Source of the DNA: an uncultured Anaerolineales bacterium | GTDB lineage: Bacteria > Chloroflexota > Anaerolineae > B4-G1 | Length of the DNA stretch: 64,000 nucleotides | Direction of reading: 5' to 3' | NCBI GenBank assembly: GCA_964575455.1 | Contig: CAZNRX010000001.1 | Location: forward strand, 112,527-176,526 | Part shown: positions 6,157 through 47,023 of the stretch, one piece after another | Position numbering within the stretch: the stretch's first letter is position 1 | Layout of the letters: each line of letters begins with the position of its first letter | Position numbers and translations under genes: made by a program | Notes under the pieces: model-generated | Told to the model about the DNA's origin: nothing | Databases searched by the model: none | Seen by the model: only the letters and a program-made list of their open reading frames with translations

Positions 6157-9100
6157 TCAGGTCGCGGCAGCTTCCAGCAATCTCTCCACTCGGTACTCGG
6201 ATGCTGCCTCGGCTGCCTGTAGCGCCTCGATCACCTCGTAGCAGCTCGTGATTCTCTCGGCCGACGCCCGCTCCGGATCTGCGGCGATCGCCACCGTGGC
6301 GACCACCATCATCCACCACAGCAACTGCTCGAATGCCTCCTCATTGAACCAGAGCACGTCCTGGTACCGGTTGACCTGGAGGAAGCGCTGCACCTCGTCG
6401 TCCTCCAGCCATGAGCGAAGCACCTGGAAGGGCCGGTTCTTGGAGCCCTCACCTAGCTCGAACCAGCGCTGGTGCGTGGTCAGCACCTTGATGGTCGTCA
6501 CGGCCCACCAGGACGATCTCTCGTCGAGGCCCAGGTCCTGGATGGCGCCCGCCGTGATCTTGCCCAGGAGCCATTCGTCCTGCCAGCTGCGGCTGATCCC
6601 CGCAAAAGCCCTCGGTGACTGCGTCGCTCCCGCCTCCATCCTGCCCAGCGCGTGGCTGAAAAGCCAGCCCAGCAGCGTGGACCAGGCCCGGGGATCGTCG
6701 TCTAGGCCCACCTCCGGCACCTCCGTTGGTCCGTCCTGGATGTACTCGGCCACGTGGTCCGGCACCGACAGGCGGCTGCCTATGGTGGGCAGATCCCAAA
6801 CCACCTCCAGCTCCCGGCGTATCTGCCGGGCCAGCGACTCCTCATCGTCACCGCCGTCGGCCCGCGACTTGATCTCTTGGAGAAGCCGGAGCGTTTGTGC
6901 CTCCACCTCGTCTGCCAGCTCCTCACGTCCCTCTGCTCCTCTGCCCCTCTGCTCCCCCGCTCCTCCGCTCTCCTGCTTCCTGGCCTCCATCAGCCTCCGG
7001 AACGTCTCGGCGTTAACCAGCTCCCGAAACGGCCCATGCACCGGCTGGAGGAGCACCTCCTTGAGCGCTTCGTCGATGCTGGGGACCCCGCGTCCGTCGA
7101 GGTAGGCGGTCAGCTGGCCGTAGGGGCGCTCCACTGAGTCGCGGACCTGGCGGAAGTCGAGGAAGACGTGGTATTTGTAGGCGCTTAGCTCGGCGTACAG
7201 CCCTTTCCCGTGCAGGTCCTCGTTGCTGCGGATGTACTCAAGCCCGTTGACGTGATCCCGGAAGATGGTGTAGGTCTTAGACCCATTCTCGTCGTCGCGC
7301 AGATCCAACCCCTCGCCCAGCGATCGCTGAACCAGCTGTTTCTCGTCCTCCCCGGTCTTAGCCGCTTCGCTTCCACGGACCGCGTAGGCGACCGACGTGC
7401 GCACCCAGCCCCGCGTCTCGGCGTACCGGTTGTGGTAGAGCACCAGAGCCCGCTCGTCGCCCACGTGGTTGGAGTAGGCGAAGACGTCCTCGTTCACGTG
7501 GCCGTCGGGCGTGAAGAAGTCGTAGAGCAGAAAGTTCTCGACGTCGGCGAAGAGATACCGCTTGTGGAGCAGCGGGAAGATCTCCCGCTCGTGGCGCTCC
7601 ACCAGGTAGGTGTCCGGGGTCTCGTCCCAGTAGGCGCGGCGGTACTCCATGCCGTACTTCTCCGTGTACCCCTCAACCTGGCCATGGCCGAACATGGGCA
7701 GGCCTGGCACGGTGGCCAGCATGGTGCAGATGCCGAAGTACTTGTCGCCCTTGCCGAACTGATCCACGGCCGTGCGCTCGTCGGGGTTGTTCATGAAGTT
7801 GACGTAGCGCTTCATGATGCGCGGATCGAACGCCAGGGTGTTCTTCATCACGCTGCGGTACTTGGCGTTATCCTCGTCGCGCAGCATGTTCATGAAGGCG
7901 CTGTTATAGACGCGGTGCATGCCCAGCGTGCGCACGAAGTAGCCCTCCATCAGCCAGAACGCCTCGGCCAGCAGCAGCGTGTCCGGCACCTCCTCCGCCA
8001 CCCGGTCCACCACCTGGCGCCAGAACTCCTCCGGCATGAGCTCGTCCAGCTGCTGCCTGGTCATCCCGTGCTCCGCTCGCGAGGGGATGTCGCCGCCGGA
8101 ACCAGGCTCCGGGAACCAGAGCCTCTGGTAGTGCTTCTTCGCCAGCGTCATGGCCGCGTCGAAGCGGATGATAGGGAACTTGTGCGCCACGTGGAGGATC
8201 ATCTGAATCACGGCCTCGCGCACCTCCTCCTTCAGGAAGTTGAGCTGCGCCGTGTCGTTCCACGGCATGCTGGTGCCGTCGTTGCCGTGGTAGATGTACC
8301 GCTCGTCACCGGTCCAGTGGTCCACACGTTTGAAGACCACGGCGGCGTCGCTGCGGTCGTAGTAGCCGTCCTCCAGGTAGATCCCCACGCGATCGTCATT
8401 GCACAGATCCTCGCCGGTGAAGGAGTAGGACGGGAATGGACTGTAGTCCAGCGAGATGAAGCGCTCGGGGTGCTCGATCACCCAGCGGGAGTCGATGCCC
8501 ATGTGGTTGGGCACCATATCGCTGGCCAGCCGGATGCCCCGCCGCCAGGCGCGGTCGCGCAGGCTCTGGTACCCCTCTTCGCCGCCCAGATCGTCCGCCA
8601 CGCGGTAGTCGTCCACGGAGTAGGCGGAGGCCACCGCCTCGGGGTTGCCCATGATCTGCTTGATGCGCTGCGAGGCCGAGCTCCGCTCCCACAAGCCGAT
8701 GAGCCATAGGCTGGTGAAGCCCCGCCGGGCCAGGATGTCCAGCTCCTCGTCCGGTATGTCACCCAAACGGGTGATTGAGCGTTCATACTTCTTCGAAAGC
8801 TGATCGAGCCATACGTAGATGTTCTTGGCCAGCAGCACCACCTTCGGCATCCAGTCCTGGTCGGGGCTGAAGCGCTCATACTCTGCCTCCCTGAACTCAT
8901 AGACCCGGCTCGGACCGGGGCCGAGGAAGGTGGCCTTCTCCTCCTCGGCGATCAGGTCCAGGCTGCTGAGCAGACGATAGAGATACTTGCCCAGGAGCGA
9001 GCCCCAGCGCTCCTGCATGAACGCCAGCTGCCCCGAGAGGGAGTGGGGCGATCTGCGGGCGGGGGCGCTCAACATGTCGATCAGGTTCTCGTGGTCGGGA

Positions 9101-36981: not shown

Positions 36982-37075
36982 AACGGGACACGAAAGGCGC
37001 GAAGAACGACACGAAAGGCGCAAAGCACGACGCGAAGGACGCGAAGGATGAAGGGCACGAATGGGGTGCAGACCG
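36982..37075 (+). repeat. Phased CACGAA-type direct-repeat array (21-bp units 'gacacgaaaggcgcgaagaac' x2 plus degenerate copies) in the ftsQ-ftsA gap.
   Basis: Units at 36988-37008 and 37009-37029 differ by 2 nt, then 'gacgcgaaggacgcgaaggatgaagggcacgaatgg'. CGAA cores recur every 10-11 bp. Confidence 0.85.
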
Positions 37076-38337: not shown

Positions 38338-38430
38338 CGCGAAGGGCACGAAACAGAAGACGAAGAGCGTGAAATAGAGCACGAAGGGCACGAAGCACGA
38401 AACACACGAAACACTATGGGCACGAGATAG
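38338..38430 (+). repeat. Second phased CACGAA/CGAAG repeat array (ftsA-ftsZ intergenic region).
   Basis: 'cgcgaagggcacgaaacagaagacgaagagcgtgaaatagagcacgaagggcacgaagcacgaaacacacgaaacac' with cores spaced ~10 bp. Confidence 0.85.
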
Positions 38431-41486: not shown

Positions 41487-41939
41487 ATGAGATGTCCATA
41501 TTGTGGCAGCAAACGCACTAGGGTCGTCGACACCGCGCGCAAGGAGCATAGCATCCGCCGTCGTCGAGAATGCAAGGAATGTGAGAAGCGCTTCTCGACC
41601 ATGGAGCGGGCCATTCTCACGACGCCACTGGTGGTCAAGCGTGACGGCCGCCGTGAGGCCTTCGACCGGGAGAAAGTTCTCTCTGGCCTGCGGGTCGCGT
41701 GCGCTCGGCGGCCCGTGTCGGCCGGCGATCTGGAGCGCGTGGTCGACCGGGTTGAGAGCCATATCCGCGAGTTGGGCAAGACCGAGATTCCCACCCGCGC
41801 CATCGGTGACGTCGTGATTGAGGAGCTGAAGTCCCTGGATCCTGTCTCCTACATTCGCTATGCCATCATCTACCTCGGGCTGGAGGATTTGGAGGCGGTG
41901 CGGACAGAGGTCAACCGCTTGCTGGAGGAACAGGAGTAG
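41487..41939 (+). CDS. nrdR: Transcriptional repressor NrdR (zinc ribbon + ATP-cone).
   Basis: 'MRCPYCGSKRTRVVDT...RRRECKECEKRFST' zinc ribbon and an ATP-cone domain; 150 aa. Confidence 0.93.
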   Translation: MRCPYCGSKRTRVVDTARKEHSIRRRRECKECEKRFSTMERAILTTPLVVKRDGRREAFDREKVLSGLRVACARRPVSAGDLERVVDRVESHIRELGKTEIPTRAIGDVVIEELKSLDPVSYIRYAIIYLGLEDLEAVRTEVNRLLEEQE

Positions 41940-42049
41940 CGTGGAGGGGCCGAGATGGAGCCGGGCCATAGCGTCGCACCCGCGATGCCGGTTGCCTGAT
42001 GGGGTGGCCGCAGGTTGATCGCGAGGGCGACGGAAGGAGTGAGGGTTCG

Positions 42050-42685
42050 ATGGCAGAGACACCAGATCTGAGCGGTGTGCCCCTGCGCCTGAACAAGCAC
42101 GTCTATGAGTATTATCAGTTTCAAGGATATGATACGAATGACTGCGGGCCTACCAGCGTGGCGATCGCGGTGAACGCCTTGTTGGGGGGCTGGGTGCTGG
42201 AGGGTCCGGTCGTGGCCGAGGAGATGAGCCACGTCGCCTTCGAGTGGAAGCCCCTGCCCCACCTGGTGGTGCCCCGCATTCCGAACTGGGCCACCTTCCC
42301 ATGGGGGATCGCCCACTACCTGCGGAAGCAGGGGTTCCGCGCCCGCTGGCGCCTGTTTGGGACGCTGGAGAGACTAGAGCGCAACCTGCGCGCTGATCTG
42401 CTGACGATGGTCATAGTAGGCGAGCCTTGGAAATGGGCTAGGGACGATCCAGATCAGTCCGGGCGGGAGCGATGGGTCTATGATGGATGGGGGCACGTCA
42501 AGATCCTCTATGGTCAGCTGCCGGGGCGCAGGTTGTACTTCGTCGATCCCGGCTGGAACGCCGAGAACAGAGAGGATCCCTTGGAGCGGTTTGGCATCTT
42601 TTCGCAGGAGGAGGACCAATTCCTTCGTGAGTGGCGGAACTTGCTGCGTATCTTCATTGAGGTGGAGGAGAATCCGCGAGCCTAA
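42050..42685 (+). CDS. Papain-like cysteine peptidase, C39-like domain protein (hypothetical).
   Basis: 'QFQGYDTNDCGPTSVAIAVNAL' fits the C39/C39-like Cys motif (Q...xDCGxxxLxM), with a downstream 'GHVKILYG' His. GAGGG RBS before MAETPD. Confidence 0.5.
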   Translation: MAETPDLSGVPLRLNKHVYEYYQFQGYDTNDCGPTSVAIAVNALLGGWVLEGPVVAEEMSHVAFEWKPLPHLVVPRIPNWATFPWGIAHYLRKQGFRARWRLFGTLERLERNLRADLLTMVIVGEPWKWARDDPDQSGRERWVYDGWGHVKILYGQLPGRRLYFVDPGWNAENREDPLERFGIFSQEEDQFLREWRNLLRIFIEVEENPRA

Positions 42686-42761: not shown

Positions 42762-43139
42762 ATGTCAGATCGCAATGCCGCGTCGCCTAAGATGACTGCG
42801 CCCATCCATGAGCTTCTCATCGTTTGGACCAGCGGCGACCGGGACGTCGCGCTGAAGATGGTCTTCATGTACGCCGCCAACGCCAAACGACATGATTGGT
42901 GGGATGAGGTCAATCTACTCGTCTGGGGCTCCTCGCAGAAGCTGCTGGCGGAGGACTCGGAGCTCCAGGCCGAGCTGACCACGATGATCGAGCTGGGTGT
43001 GCACGTGGGCGCGTGCAAGGCCTGCGCCGACGGCTACTCGGTCACCGAGCAGCTCGAGGAGCTGGGCGTGGAGGTCTTCTACAGCGGCGAGTACCTGACC
43101 GACTGGATCAAGTCGGGCCGGGCCGTGATCACATTCTAG
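42762..43139 (+). CDS. DsrE/DsrF/TusD-like sulfur-relay family protein.
   Basis: ~125 aa with 'LIVWTSGD' and 'GACKACADGY' characteristic of the DsrE fold. Confidence 0.6.
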   Translation: MSDRNAASPKMTAPIHELLIVWTSGDRDVALKMVFMYAANAKRHDWWDEVNLLVWGSSQKLLAEDSELQAELTTMIELGVHVGACKACADGYSVTEQLEELGVEVFYSGEYLTDWIKSGRAVITF

Positions 43140-43149
43140 GCCCAGCCCC

Positions 43150-43272
43150 GGTGCGTTGGTGCATTGCACGTGCCGTGCGTGCGGGCCACCTGGCGGAGTA
43201 CGGTGCGTTGCACGTGCTGTGCGTGCGGGCCACCTGGCGGAGTACGGTGCGTTGCACGTGCCGTGCGTGCGA
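43150..43272 (+). repeat. Tandem repeat, ~44-bp unit x2.7 (ggtgcgttgcacgtgcYgtgcgtgcgggccacctggcggagtac), each copy carrying the palindrome GCACGTGC.
   Basis: Copies at 43150-43201 (with an 8-bp internal duplication), 43202-43245 and 43246-43272 (partial). GCACGTGC at 43166, 43210 and 43254, exactly 44 bp apart. Confidence 0.9.
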
Positions 43273-43313
43273 CGCATCTGGAGCAGAGCAGCGAGCTGCA
43301 CGTTTGGAGATAC

Positions 43314-43559
43314 ATGGACGAGGAACACACAGACATATCGGACGATGCCAACCAGCGCGAGCTGGAGGAGGCCCCCAACGGGCCGCTCAAGATCGTGATG
43401 GACGCGCGGGATCTGGAGTTCCTCGATGGGGCGTTTGGAGCGGTCACGGCGTTCTTCATGCTGATGTACGTCGACCAGGCCGACTTCCTCGGAAGAGGTG
43501 GAGACAGGATACGGGGTTCTCTGGCCCGAGAGGCCATTGGACGTCCGTCGCTACGTTGA
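43314..43559 (+). CDS. Small acidic hypothetical protein (81 aa).
   Basis: GGAGA RBS before the ATG at 43314. The longer listed ORF starts inside the tandem repeat and is unlikely to be coding there. Confidence 0.35.
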   Translation: MDEEHTDISDDANQRELEEAPNGPLKIVMDARDLEFLDGAFGAVTAFFMLMYVDQADFLGRGGDRIRGSLAREAIGRPSLR

Positions 43560-43700
43560 GCTGGCGCGGCAGGTGGGATTCGACATAGAGGAGCGATGGG
43601 AGAGTGATCGGGTTTTTCGTCTCTCACTGCGCAAAGCGTGAGATGGGTCGACAGAGGGCGTGCCGATGATGGAAGCAATTTCAGTGAAGGAGGATAGACG

Positions 43701-44477
43701 GTGGAGGAGATGACGACGATGGCGTCGCTGCGAGAGGTTTTTACGTTTCCTTTTCGCGGTCCCGACTGGAAGCAGCCCTTCATCATCGGGTCCGTGCTAC
43801 TGATCGTGAGCTTCTTCATCCCGATCCTGCCGCTGATCTTCGTCTGCGGCTACGTGCTCGTGGTGATGCGTCAGGCCATCCGGGGGAATGAGCTCACCCT
43901 GCCGCGTTGGGACGACTGGGGCAAGCTGGCGGGGGACGGCCTGCGCGCCATGCTGGTTGGCTTCATCTACCTGCTGCCGGGGCTGTTGGTCGCGTCTGGC
44001 GGCTTTGCGCTATACCTTGCGACCACGTTTGCTATGCCCTTCGCCATCGAGGCTGGAGACGAAACCCTCTGGCCGCTCCTCTTCTTCGGCAGCTTCGCCA
44101 TTATGTTCCTCTCGATGTTTCTCGGGACCCTGCTCACGCTGTTAGGGGCGATTCCACTGCCGATAGCCACTGCGCACTTCATTGACGAGGACGACCTGTC
44201 GGCCGCTTTTCGATTCCGTCAGTGGTGGCGGCTGCTGCGCGCGAACCCGATGGGCGTCTTCATCGCCTGGGTGATGGTGGCTGGGCTGATGGCCATCGTC
44301 TATCTGGTCGTCTTGCTGGCCTACTACACACTTGTGCTGTGCTGCGCGGTCCCGTTCCTGGCGAGTCCCATCGGCTTCTACGTCCTGCTGGTGAGCGCCG
44401 CCATCTTTGGGCGCACCTATCGGGAGAGCTGGCGGATGGTGGCGGACAGCCGTGTTGCAGAGAAAAACGGGCCGTGA
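43701..44477 (+). CDS. Polytopic membrane protein (DUF4013-like), 258 aa.
   Basis: 6-7 TM helices with the conserved-looking '[10 protein letters not shown]' and '[11 protein letters not shown]' segments. GGAGGAG RBS. Immediately upstream of nrdJ. Confidence 0.55.
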
Positions 44478-44572: not shown

Positions 44573-47023
44573 ATGACGATACAGGAAACAATGGAGATTG
44601 ACGCACCTAATCAGGAGGCATCCATTGAAGACAGGCTTTCCGAGAACGCCCTGAAGGTCTTCCAGCGCCGTTACGTGCGCAAAGGACCGGACGGACAGCC
44701 CGTGGAAACGGTAGCGGGTGTCTTTCGTCGTGTCGCCTCCCATGTCGCCGCTGCCGAGGAGGGCCTCAACGGCGACGCTCAGCGGGCGGAGAAGATCTTC
44801 TTCGACCTTATGACCCGGCTCCACTTCCTGCCCAACTCGCCGACCTTCACCGGCGCGGGCACGCCTCTCTCACAGCTGGCGGCCTGCTTCGTCCTACCTA
44901 TCTCCGACGACATGGGGCGTCGGGATGATGGCATCTTCGAGACGCTGCGGGACATGGCGCTGATTCAACAGACCGGTGGCGGTACCGGCTTCTCGTTCTC
45001 CCGTCTGCGGCCTAAGAGCGCCGTCGTTCATTCCAGCGGCGGCGAGGCCACCGGCCCAGTCGGCTTCATGCAGGTCTACGACACCGCCTCCGAGATCATC
45101 AGCCAGGGCGGAGCGCGGCGCGGCGCGAACATGGCGGTCCTCCACGTCAACCATCCCGACATCCGCGACTTCATTCACTGCAAGTCGAGTGAGTACGCCA
45201 TCACCAACTTCAACATCTCCGTCGGCATCACGGATGACTTCATGCGGGCCGTCGCCCAGGACGAGAACGTCGACCTGGTCAACCCTCAGGATGGGGAGGT
45301 ATGGGAGACCGTCGCCGCCCGGGAGCTGTTCGACGAGATGGTGAAAGCGGCCCATCGGAACGGCGAGCCAGGCTTGCTCTTCTTGGACACGGCCAATCGG
45401 GACAATCCCACGCCCCATCTGGGCGACTATGAGGCGACCAATCCGTGCGGAGAGCAGCCCTTGCTCCCCTATGAGAACTGCTGCCTGGGATCCATCAACC
45501 TGGCGCGTCACGTGAGGCCGGCCAGCAACGACGGCAGGCGCGCGGTCAGGGTGGTCGACTGGGAGAAGCTTGAGGAGACGATCCGACAGGCGGTCCGCTT
45601 CCTCGACGATGTCGTCGGCGCCAACGGATACGTGCCGGCCGTGCCCGAGCTGCGCGAGGCTGCTCGGCGCACGCGCCGCATCGGCCTGGGCATCACCGGG
45701 CTGGGCGACGTGCTCTATCAACTCCGCGTGCGCTACGGCAGCCAGGAGGCGCGAGATCTGGCCGGCCAGTTGATGGCCTTCATCCGCTACCACGCTATGC
45801 GCACCAGCGTCGACCTGGCGCGCGAGCGAGGCCCCTTCCCGGCCATCGAGGGCAGCGTCTACGATCCTGCGGACGTGCGCTGGGAGCCACCCCAGCCCGT
45901 CGAGCCCTTCGACCCGTCGAACCATTGGGGTCGGCCCTCGCTCCATTGGGACGCCCTCGTGGCCGATATCGAGCGTCACGGCATCCGGAACGCGGCCCAG
46001 ACGACCATCGCGCCGACGGGCACCCGCTCGACCATCGCCGGCATAGAGGCCTACGGCTGCGAGCCGGTCTTCGCTCTTGCCTACGTGCGTCACATGAACG
46101 ACAACGGTCAGGACGTGGAACTCGAGTACACCAGCCCTCTCTTCCTGCAGGCCCTGACGGAGGCCGGGTTGGACGAGGCGTCGCGCCAGCAGATCATCGA
46201 GCAGGTAGCGGTCTCTGGGAGCTGTCAGGACGTGGAGCAGGTTCCCGAGGCCATCCGCGAGGTCTTTGTCGTGGCCCAGGACGTTCCCGCGGAAGAGCAT
46301 GTCCGCATGCAGGCCGCGCTTCAGGCCTTCGTGGATGCCTCCATCAGCAAGACCATCAACTTCCCGGGCGACGCAGAGCCTGAGGAGGTGGCTCGCGCGT
46401 TTGAGCTGGCCTGGAAGCTGGGATGCAAGGGCCTCACTGTCTACGTGACGGGCTCGCGCGAGAAAGTGGTGCTGGAGACGAAGGAGACGAGGCAGGCCAA
46501 GCAGCGGCCCACGGCCGGCATGATGTCCACCGATGTGCGGCCGCGCCCTCACACGCTGGAGGGCAAGACCTACAGAGTGCAGACCCCCCTGGGCACAGCC
46601 TACACCACGGTCAACGTCAACGGCGACGGCGAGCCGTTCGAGGTGTTTCTCAACGTGGGCAAGGCCGGGTCGGACACAGCGGCGGTGGCGGAGGCTATCG
46701 GGCGCCTGGTCTCGTTGGTTCTGCGTTTGCCCTCACCCCTCTCGTCCAGGCGGAGGCTGAACCAGGTGGTTCGACAGCTGCGGGGCATCGGCAGTGGTCG
46801 CTCGTTGGGCTTTGGACGTGACCGGGTGCGCAGCCTCCCGGACGGCGTGGCGCAGGTGCTGGCCGAGCACCTGGGCCTTGCGGAGCCCGTGGAGGGCGCC
46901 AAGAGGAGCGAGCAGCTCCCACTCTTCCCGGAGGGCGATCTCTGTCCCGAGTGTGGTCAGGCTTCACTCGTCTTCGAGGAGGGCTGTCGCCACTGCTACA
47001 ACTGCGGCTACAGCGAATGCTAG
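44573..47023 (+). CDS. nrdJ: Adenosylcobalamin-dependent (class II) ribonucleoside-diphosphate/triphosphate reductase NrdJ.
   Basis: 816 aa with '[12 protein letters not shown]', '[11 protein letters not shown]' and '[21 protein letters not shown]' active-site regions, and a C-terminal CxxC...CxxC zinc ribbon. GGAGAGA RBS. The listed ORF starts 117 codons too early. Confidence 0.92.

Follow-up and report, generated by a model that had tools for sequence, protein, structure and literature searches.

The 44-bp tandem repeat that separates a DsrE-like gene from the remains of a methyltransferase gene is most probably a copy-number expansion private to this lineage, a minisatellite or VNTR that grew from the DsrE-like/SAM-methyltransferase spacer. 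The ancestral spacer would have looked like the one still found in the closest relative: 78 nt long, with one 44-nt unit and a second GCACGT 44 nt further on, and rich in short direct and inverted repeats. Short direct repeats in this GTGC-rich, hairpin-forming DNA may then have mediated replication slippage (slipped-strand mispairing) or unequal recombination and so produced the present arrangement, in which the orthologous unit, now copy 3, is accompanied by two more units and an 8-bp duplication. The expansion would have been tolerated since the leader no longer serves a working gene, and the leader of a decaying gene should be little constrained. The three palindromes spaced at 44 bp, which give the array its regulatory look, would be an automatic by-product of copying a unit with one 8-bp palindrome, as the copying of one unit yields phased palindromes without any regulatory array.

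Tandem Repeats Finder places the array at 43158-43271 of the window (the whole stretch of DNA that was analysed, 64 kb in length), with period 44, 2.6 copies, 95% matches and a score of 214, by far the strongest tandem repeat in the window. An earlier note on this DNA, made from the letters alone, had described a 44-bp tandem repeat, three GCACGTGC palindromes at exactly 44-bp spacing and an 8-bp duplication inside the first copy. Each of these observations was borne out. The palindromes stand at 43166, 43210 and 43254, exactly 44 bp apart, and the consensus 44-mer matches at 43158 and 43202 with one mismatch each (shuffled sequence gave 0 matches), while the 26-nt head of the unit matches again at 43246. 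The array continues past 43272, where the note had ended it, to 43303. As now delimited, the region 43150-43303 holds three 44-bp units, the 8-bp duplication and the degenerate beginning of a fourth, all described here on the + strand, and fills most of the 174 nt that separate the DsrE-like stop (43139) from the next ATG (43314).

The 8-bp duplication is the first copy, at 43150-43157, of a pair that reads GGTGCGTT and then GGTGCATT (43158-43165) across 43150-43165. Unit 1 (43158-43201, palindrome at 43166-43173) and unit 2 (43202-43245, palindrome at 43210-43217) are the extra copies and differ from each other at two positions. Unit 3 (43246-43289, palindrome at 43254-43261) is the orthologue of the single unit in the closest relative, as alignment shows. 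The units abut head to tail with no spacers between them. Beyond unit 3, the letters at 43272-43303 remain in register with the unit at 20 of 32 positions (P about 5e-5 per placement), and the array ends in a fourth, degraded or partial GCACGT within the degenerate unit start AGCGAGCTGCACGT (43290-43303). A ribosome-binding segment and the methyltransferase start, TTGGAGATAC followed by ATG, occupy 43304-43316. Within the unit, a GTGC-rich stretch (GGTGC GTTGCAC GTGC C GTGC GTGC G) has several overlapping self-complementary readings, of which GCACGTGC is one, and the long inverted repeat is centred on unit position 17, not on the centre of GCACGTGC. Two other classes of repeat were considered and rejected. 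Coding repeats are out because 44 is not a multiple of 3 and the frame would change from unit to unit, and a CRISPR array is out because the units abut without unique spacers.

The comparison with relatives carries the main finding. The closest relative, L013, is a 64.8-kb JGI contig bearing P0121, a DsrE-like homologue that is 93% identical to the window protein; these two proteins are the only members of the DsrE-like 90% cluster. L013 shares gene order and about 91% nucleotide identity with the window over 37.0-48.8 kb. After its DsrE stop comes a spacer of 78 nt (6379-6456) with one unit, followed by an intact gene for a SAM-dependent methyltransferase of 206 aa. This spacer reads GCCCGGTCCC GGTGCGTTGCACGTGCCGTGCGTGCG ATGCACCTGGGGCCGCGC ACTGTGCCGCACGT TTGGAGATAC up to the GTG start. 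It contains a second GCACGT 44 nt after the unit's own, within ACTGTGCCGCACGT, the counterpart of AGCGAGCTGCACGT in the window, and the last 16 nt before the window's start codon, GCACGTTTGGAGATAC (43298-43313), are the same in L013. Since L013 already has the degenerate fourth start, GCACGT stood twice in the ancestral spacer, at a distance of 44 nt. In a blastn comparison, positions 43245-43346, which run from unit 3 through the tail into the ORF, match L013 6388-6489 at 88%. Window positions 43140-43193 align to the same L013 segment with an 8-nt gap, where L013 has no duplication. Since both alignments fall on one L013 segment, the window has gained 8 bp and 88 bp (two extra units) relative to L013.

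A second contig from the same metagenome as L013, L014, encodes a methyltransferase 72% identical and has a spacer of 45 nt that ends GGTGCGTTGCGCG-TTTGGAGATTC before ATG. The 13-nt unit head here abuts the ribosome-binding segment directly, and there is no 44-nt unit. The corresponding spacers of L007, L005/L006, L015/L016, L017 and L018 contain no unit, core or CACGTG. The available genomes therefore give a copy series of 0 (L014), 1 (L013) and 3 (window) at a single locus. Three taxa fit either a loss of 44 nt in L014 or their gain in the clade of L013 and the window, so the direction is ambiguous. Copy number varies between related genomes at an orthologous locus, as in a VNTR, and the close comparator is L013 alone, about 9% diverged. 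The next methyltransferase homologue is 73% identical, and the intermediate relatives L017 and L018 lack the unit. It is possible that the single unit of L013 is itself a collapsed repeat in a metagenome contig. The head-to-tail unit with period 44, 2.6 copies at 95% and a degenerate continuation also has the form of a VNTR, whose units are roughly 10-100 bp long.

By the source names of its homologues, the DNA comes from a member of the Anaerolineae (Chloroflexota). The genes around the array, from nrdR to an nrdJ-like gene, all lie on the + strand. nrdR (41487-41939; Pfam Zn_ribbon_NrdR and ATP-cone) is the sole recognisable regulator gene nearby. It is followed by an ORF of 228 aa of unknown kind (41999-42685) and by the intact DsrE-like gene (42762-43139, 125 aa, Pfam DsrE E=5.7e-6), whose stop lies 10 nt before the repeat region. 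Downstream of the array and the methyltransferase remains are an intact DUF4013 membrane protein gene (about 43713-44477, Pfam E=1.1e-31), of the same length as its L013 counterpart, and an intact class II-type ribonucleotide reductase gene (nrdJ-like, 44576-47023; Pfam Ribonuc_red_lgC E=2e-132 and TSCPD).

The ORF that directly follows the array appears in the earlier note as a small ORF. Profile search, tblastn, blastn and alignment identify it as a remnant of the L013-type methyltransferase. The ORF (43314-43559) has 81 aa and covers only profile positions 24-78 of 95 of Pfam Methyltransf_11, below the cut-off. The best 120 homologues of the L013 methyltransferase are all 191-259 aa long, so the 81-aa ORF of the window is a remnant. 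Its N-terminal piece (43314-43484, + strand) joins codons 1-11 to codons 56-101 of the L013 class I SAM methyltransferase, the result of an in-frame deletion of 132 nt (L013 6490-6621, junction 43343-43346) that removed the SAM-binding glycine-rich motif I (ILDLGGGGEG). A second deletion of about 161 nt (L013 6760-6920, junction about 43484/43485) shifted the frame, and the last 47 codons survive in a different frame as a C-terminal piece (43498-43641, codons to 43638, + strand). Both deletions are bordered by short direct repeats, those around the 161-nt deletion being two imperfect copies of about 20 nt. This homology evidence makes the small ORF a class I SAM methyltransferase pseudogene and corrects the annotation: 43314-43641 should not be annotated as a small-protein gene.

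The methyltransferase remains and the array share one short stretch rich in indels. Four indel events relative to L013 (+8, +88, -132 and -161 nt) fall within about 350 nt, against 0-19 gapped positions per 1.2-3.5 kb in the flanking genes. Omega against L013 is 0.10-0.22 in the neighbouring genes (DsrE-like 0.22, DUF4013 0.19, nrdJ-like 0.10), 0.60 in the N-terminal remnant and 0.11 in the C-terminal remnant. This pattern may fit a fairly recent inactivation, with a C-terminal piece that still looks selected. A similar collapse has taken place independently in another relative, where the methyltransferase is reduced to an ORF of 58 aa made of the first 7 and last ~50 codons (L005 2143-2319, also L006; GCA_964421785.1). 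The two collapses retain the same C-terminal ~47-50 codons. The retained piece may contain a cis element for the downstream gene or encode a micro-protein, or it may reflect nothing beyond recent inactivation.

What lies between DsrE and nrdJ is variable among relatives: methyltransferase and DUF4013, methyltransferase and CN_hydrolase, the 58-aa mini-ORF and a short-chain dehydrogenase, an unrelated ORF of 65 aa, or nothing. L017 and L004 have no methyltransferase, and in L005 it is down to 58 aa. Around this variable cargo, the order nrdR, (PHP), a ~220-aa unknown protein, DsrE-like gene, cargo and nrdJ is kept in the Anaerolineae relatives L004, L005, L007 and L013-L018. The DsrE-like protein is constantly paired with NrdR and NrdJ.

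The differences among units are unevenly spread. L013 and unit 3 share the first 26 nt (GGTGCGTTGCACGTGCCGTGCGTGCG) without a difference, and units 1 and 2 each depart from them at one position. In the last 18 nt, unit 3 differs from L013 at 5 of 18 positions (Fisher p 0.008); against units 1 and 2 the count is 8 of 18 (Fisher p 0.0017). Units 1 and 2 differ from each other at two positions only, both in the core. With a synonymous p-distance of 0.213, 26 nt would stay unchanged with a probability of 0.002. Because the differences are so uneven across the unit, constraint on the core is possible, and units 1 and 2 cannot be read as plain new copies of unit 3. Read from these alignments, the history of the array is at least two-step. 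The slippage duplication that the earlier note offered as its alternative is supported, with the qualification that a single, very recent event does not fit the last 18 positions, 8 of which separate units 1 and 2 from unit 3. Three histories would fit: constraint on the core, gene conversion that kept the core uniform, or a 3′ half of units 1 and 2 that never matched the one in unit 3, having come from a complex event or from recombination with a diverged strain. A template for this odd 3′ half (GGGCCACCTGGCGGAGTACGG) was not found in the window.

A genuine cis function of the lone ancestral core is therefore possible and, if real, would give a first handle on the regulation of the widely conserved Anaerolineae nrdR-DsrE-nrdJ neighbourhood. 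A stronger version of this idea is that the 26-nt core is a cis-regulatory element of the nrdR-DsrE-methyltransferase-DUF4013-nrdJ cluster, either a protein site or the nucleating half of an RNA hairpin, and that its amplification from one copy to three was adaptive, re-tuning transcription or mRNA processing towards DUF4013 and nrdJ after the loss of the methyltransferase. It would account for a core that stays identical while the rest of the unit drifts. We consider it improbable.

The unit also has a strong predicted fold. Its first 33 nt form a 14-bp stem-loop, at -23.7 kcal/mol in L013 and -22.9 kcal/mol in unit 3. The entire 78-nt spacer of L013 folds into one long hairpin from the first base after the DsrE stop (-44 kcal/mol, z=-3.0, with 2 of 200 shuffles as good). 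Two changes within the stem between unit 3 and L013 keep the pairing through G-U wobbles that are valid on the + strand only. With lower confidence, we take the single ancestral unit to be the centre of a strong intercistronic stem-loop, one that probably works in the transcript as an mRNA 3′-end or leader element. From there it is a further step to read the array itself as a functional RNA element, with units serving as terminators, attenuators or mRNA-stabilising hairpins and with the triplication strengthening insulation or processing between the DsrE-like gene and DUF4013/nrdJ. Such a role agrees with the conserved 26-nt core, with the canonical terminator-like hairpin that L005 has at this position, and with the folds and wobble pairs of L013 and unit 3. 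The added units point the other way. The stems of units 1 and 2 are weakened by two mismatched pairs, to about -17.7 kcal/mol in unit 1 (with the 8-bp duplication included) and to -15.8 kcal/mol in unit 2, which has an internal loop, and the triplicated spacer as a whole folds no better than its shuffles (z=0.1). The 5′ arm alone is invariant while the 3′ arm varies, no pair shows a change in both partners, and in the covariation test 377 of 500 shuffles do as well. The hairpin is present in the predicted folds, and the covariation test gives no sign of selection on it.

Known RNA classes were also searched. Like an intrinsic (Rho-independent) terminator, the locus has a strong G+C-rich hairpin 0-11 nt past the stop codon; unlike one, it has no U-tract or T-run after the hairpin, and scans for intrinsic terminators and for sigma-70 promoters were empty at the locus and in L013. 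Rfam gave no match at gathering score in the whole window, and at E<1 around the locus it gave only an unrelated snoRNA model at 43680-43735, below threshold; the scan for tRNA and tmRNA genes found none. Taken together with the weakened stems, these results make it unlikely that the triplicated array works as an RNA element.

The origin of the ancestral hairpin can be approached separately from its function. In L013 the 3′ arm of the hairpin (CGTGCGATGCACCTGGGGCCGCGC) agrees at about 80% with the reverse complement of the 23 nt ahead of the loop, and the 44 nt that hold this arm are precisely those missing from L014. It is tempting to speculate that the hairpin arose by inverted duplication or template switching. 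Short-range template switching during replication has been described as a route to hairpin stems (PMC8794818). The likeness to the hairpins described there lies in the complementary arm and in its absence from L014. Unlike them, our case has three taxa and an ambiguous direction (gain in L013 and the window or loss in L014), and its arms have already diverged.

The earlier note had preferred a different interpretation, a multi-site operator for a dimeric regulator. On this view the three GCACGTGC palindromes would be bound cooperatively by a dimeric transcription factor that controls the downstream genes. The array does resemble multi-site operators and iteron-like arrays in having identical palindromes at fixed spacing upstream of co-oriented genes, and the palindrome is perfect and sits inside the invariant 26-nt core. 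Unlike those systems, the array is not kept in relatives, has no cognate regulator and no other sites, owes its spacing to the repeat period, and stands in front of an inactivated target gene. The site arrangement falls to one copy in L013 and to none in L014, L007, L005, L015/16, L017 and L018, even though the further relatives have the same gene order. The gene directly downstream, on which an operator might be expected to act, is the broken methyltransferase.

Palindrome statistics offer no help to this proposal. GCACGTGC occurs at 5 sites in the window against 2.1 expected, a number reached by 8 of 100 shuffles. Three of the five sites are the array itself, and the 2 sites outside it compare with about 2 expected in 64 kb. 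Perfect 8-bp palindromes are common in this DNA: the window has 283, and 14.9% of its 44-nt tiles carry at least one. The tandem repeat exceeds chance; the palindrome does not. Nor is the spacing of about four helical turns, to which the earlier note had drawn attention, a sign of design. Whatever a 44-bp tandem unit contains comes back once per period, and phasing therefore carries no information. A period of 44 bp is moreover 4.19 helical turns, a non-integer value that rotates successive sites by about 70 degrees.

A regulator and a regulon were sought with the same outcome. No second site was found in the 64 kb or in the syntenic loci, and matches to the extended motif at ≤2 mismatches are at chance level, with no enrichment that would suggest a regulon. 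The only regulator encoded nearby is NrdR. Its classical box, reportedly the AT-rich consensus of Rodionov and Gelfand in 2005, is unlike the motif. The consensus (ACACWATATATWGTGT, ≤3 mismatches) has no match anywhere in the 64-kb window, though both nrdR and nrdJ are present, and the NrdR operator of this lineage may differ from the classical form. Among the 15 top-ranked of 485 full-text matches in the literature there was no bacterial operator with GCACGTGC; those relevant to the sequence were eukaryotic bHLH E-box studies. The array fails as an operator on every point that could be tested, and we regard this function as very unlikely. A possible cis role for the single core does not rescue an operator of three sites.

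Further copies of the unit, for which the earlier note had suggested a search, did not appear. At ≤3 mismatches the 44-mer has no further copy in the 64-kb window. The 44-mer, the 26-nt core, the 21-nt 3′ part and the 13-nt head have no good match in the window or the syntenic loci beyond the orthologous position. Exact scans with a 20-nt core returned 2 hits in GTDB species representatives and 5 in the JGI metagenome collection, all of them chance matches with unrelated flanks; neither the source genome nor L013 was recovered, so that the coverage of these scans is incomplete. With these 7 chance 20-mers as the sole hits in scans of incomplete coverage, a dispersed element was rejected.

The repeat is also real. 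The source is evidently a metagenome-assembled genome, and assemblers can mis-join tandem repeats. An independent Logan contig (L001, SRR7048227) covers the 8-bp duplication, unit 1 and the step from unit 1 into unit 2, and is identical to the window in this part. The contig breaks off at the last unique 31-mer; the 31-mer that comes next is present at both 43175 and 43219. The bases that precede this shared 31-mer are C (43175) and T (43219), and the contig ends there because a k=31 graph must branch where a 31-mer has two preceding bases; the branch is the one expected if both variants are present in the reads. The agreement of L001 and its end at the predicted branch, together with variants that distinguish the copies (A/G at unit position 6, C/T at position 17) and with an array of ~150 nt that spans roughly one read length, therefore make an assembly artefact extremely unlikely.

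Among known repeat families, the mycobacterial MIRU-VNTRs come closest. MIRUs are units of 40-100 bp between operon genes with G+C-rich internal inverted repeats (PMC3184786). The unit described here falls in the same length range, has co-oriented genes of an operon-like cluster on either side, is rich in G+C, contains inverted repeats, and varies in copy number (0, 1, 3) among relatives. In contrast, a genome has about 40-50 dispersed MIRU loci, with ORFs that overlap the genes next to them; our array has no second locus found, a length of 44 nt that is not a multiple of three, and a pseudogene behind it. The size and stem-loop properties of REP sequences (PMC3184786) invite a similar comparison. 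Like REP/BIME elements, which sometimes occur in tandem clusters, the unit has a G+C-rich stem-loop of ~33 nt in an intercistronic spacer. Unlike REPs, which have many dispersed copies, it has none elsewhere in the 64 kb, in the loci of relatives or in the incomplete collection scans.

The significance of the array beyond this locus is small, as it is an ordinary further instance of a VNTR. It is nevertheless a clear case of tandem duplication mimicking regulatory "phased palindromes", and one close relative can settle such a question.

Two minor observations concern the surroundings. The nrdJ of L004 (5806-10351) encodes more than 1700 aa and carries Intein_splicing, LAGLIDADG_3 and NUMOD3 domains, none of which is present in the nrdJ of the window. 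Finally, the window contains other short tandem repeats: 18 nt x3.8 at 2502-2569, 21 nt x2.9 at 36987-37046 and 16 nt x3.0 at 38378-38425. The repeat near 37.0 kb gives shifted self-matches against L013 1648-1742 as well.
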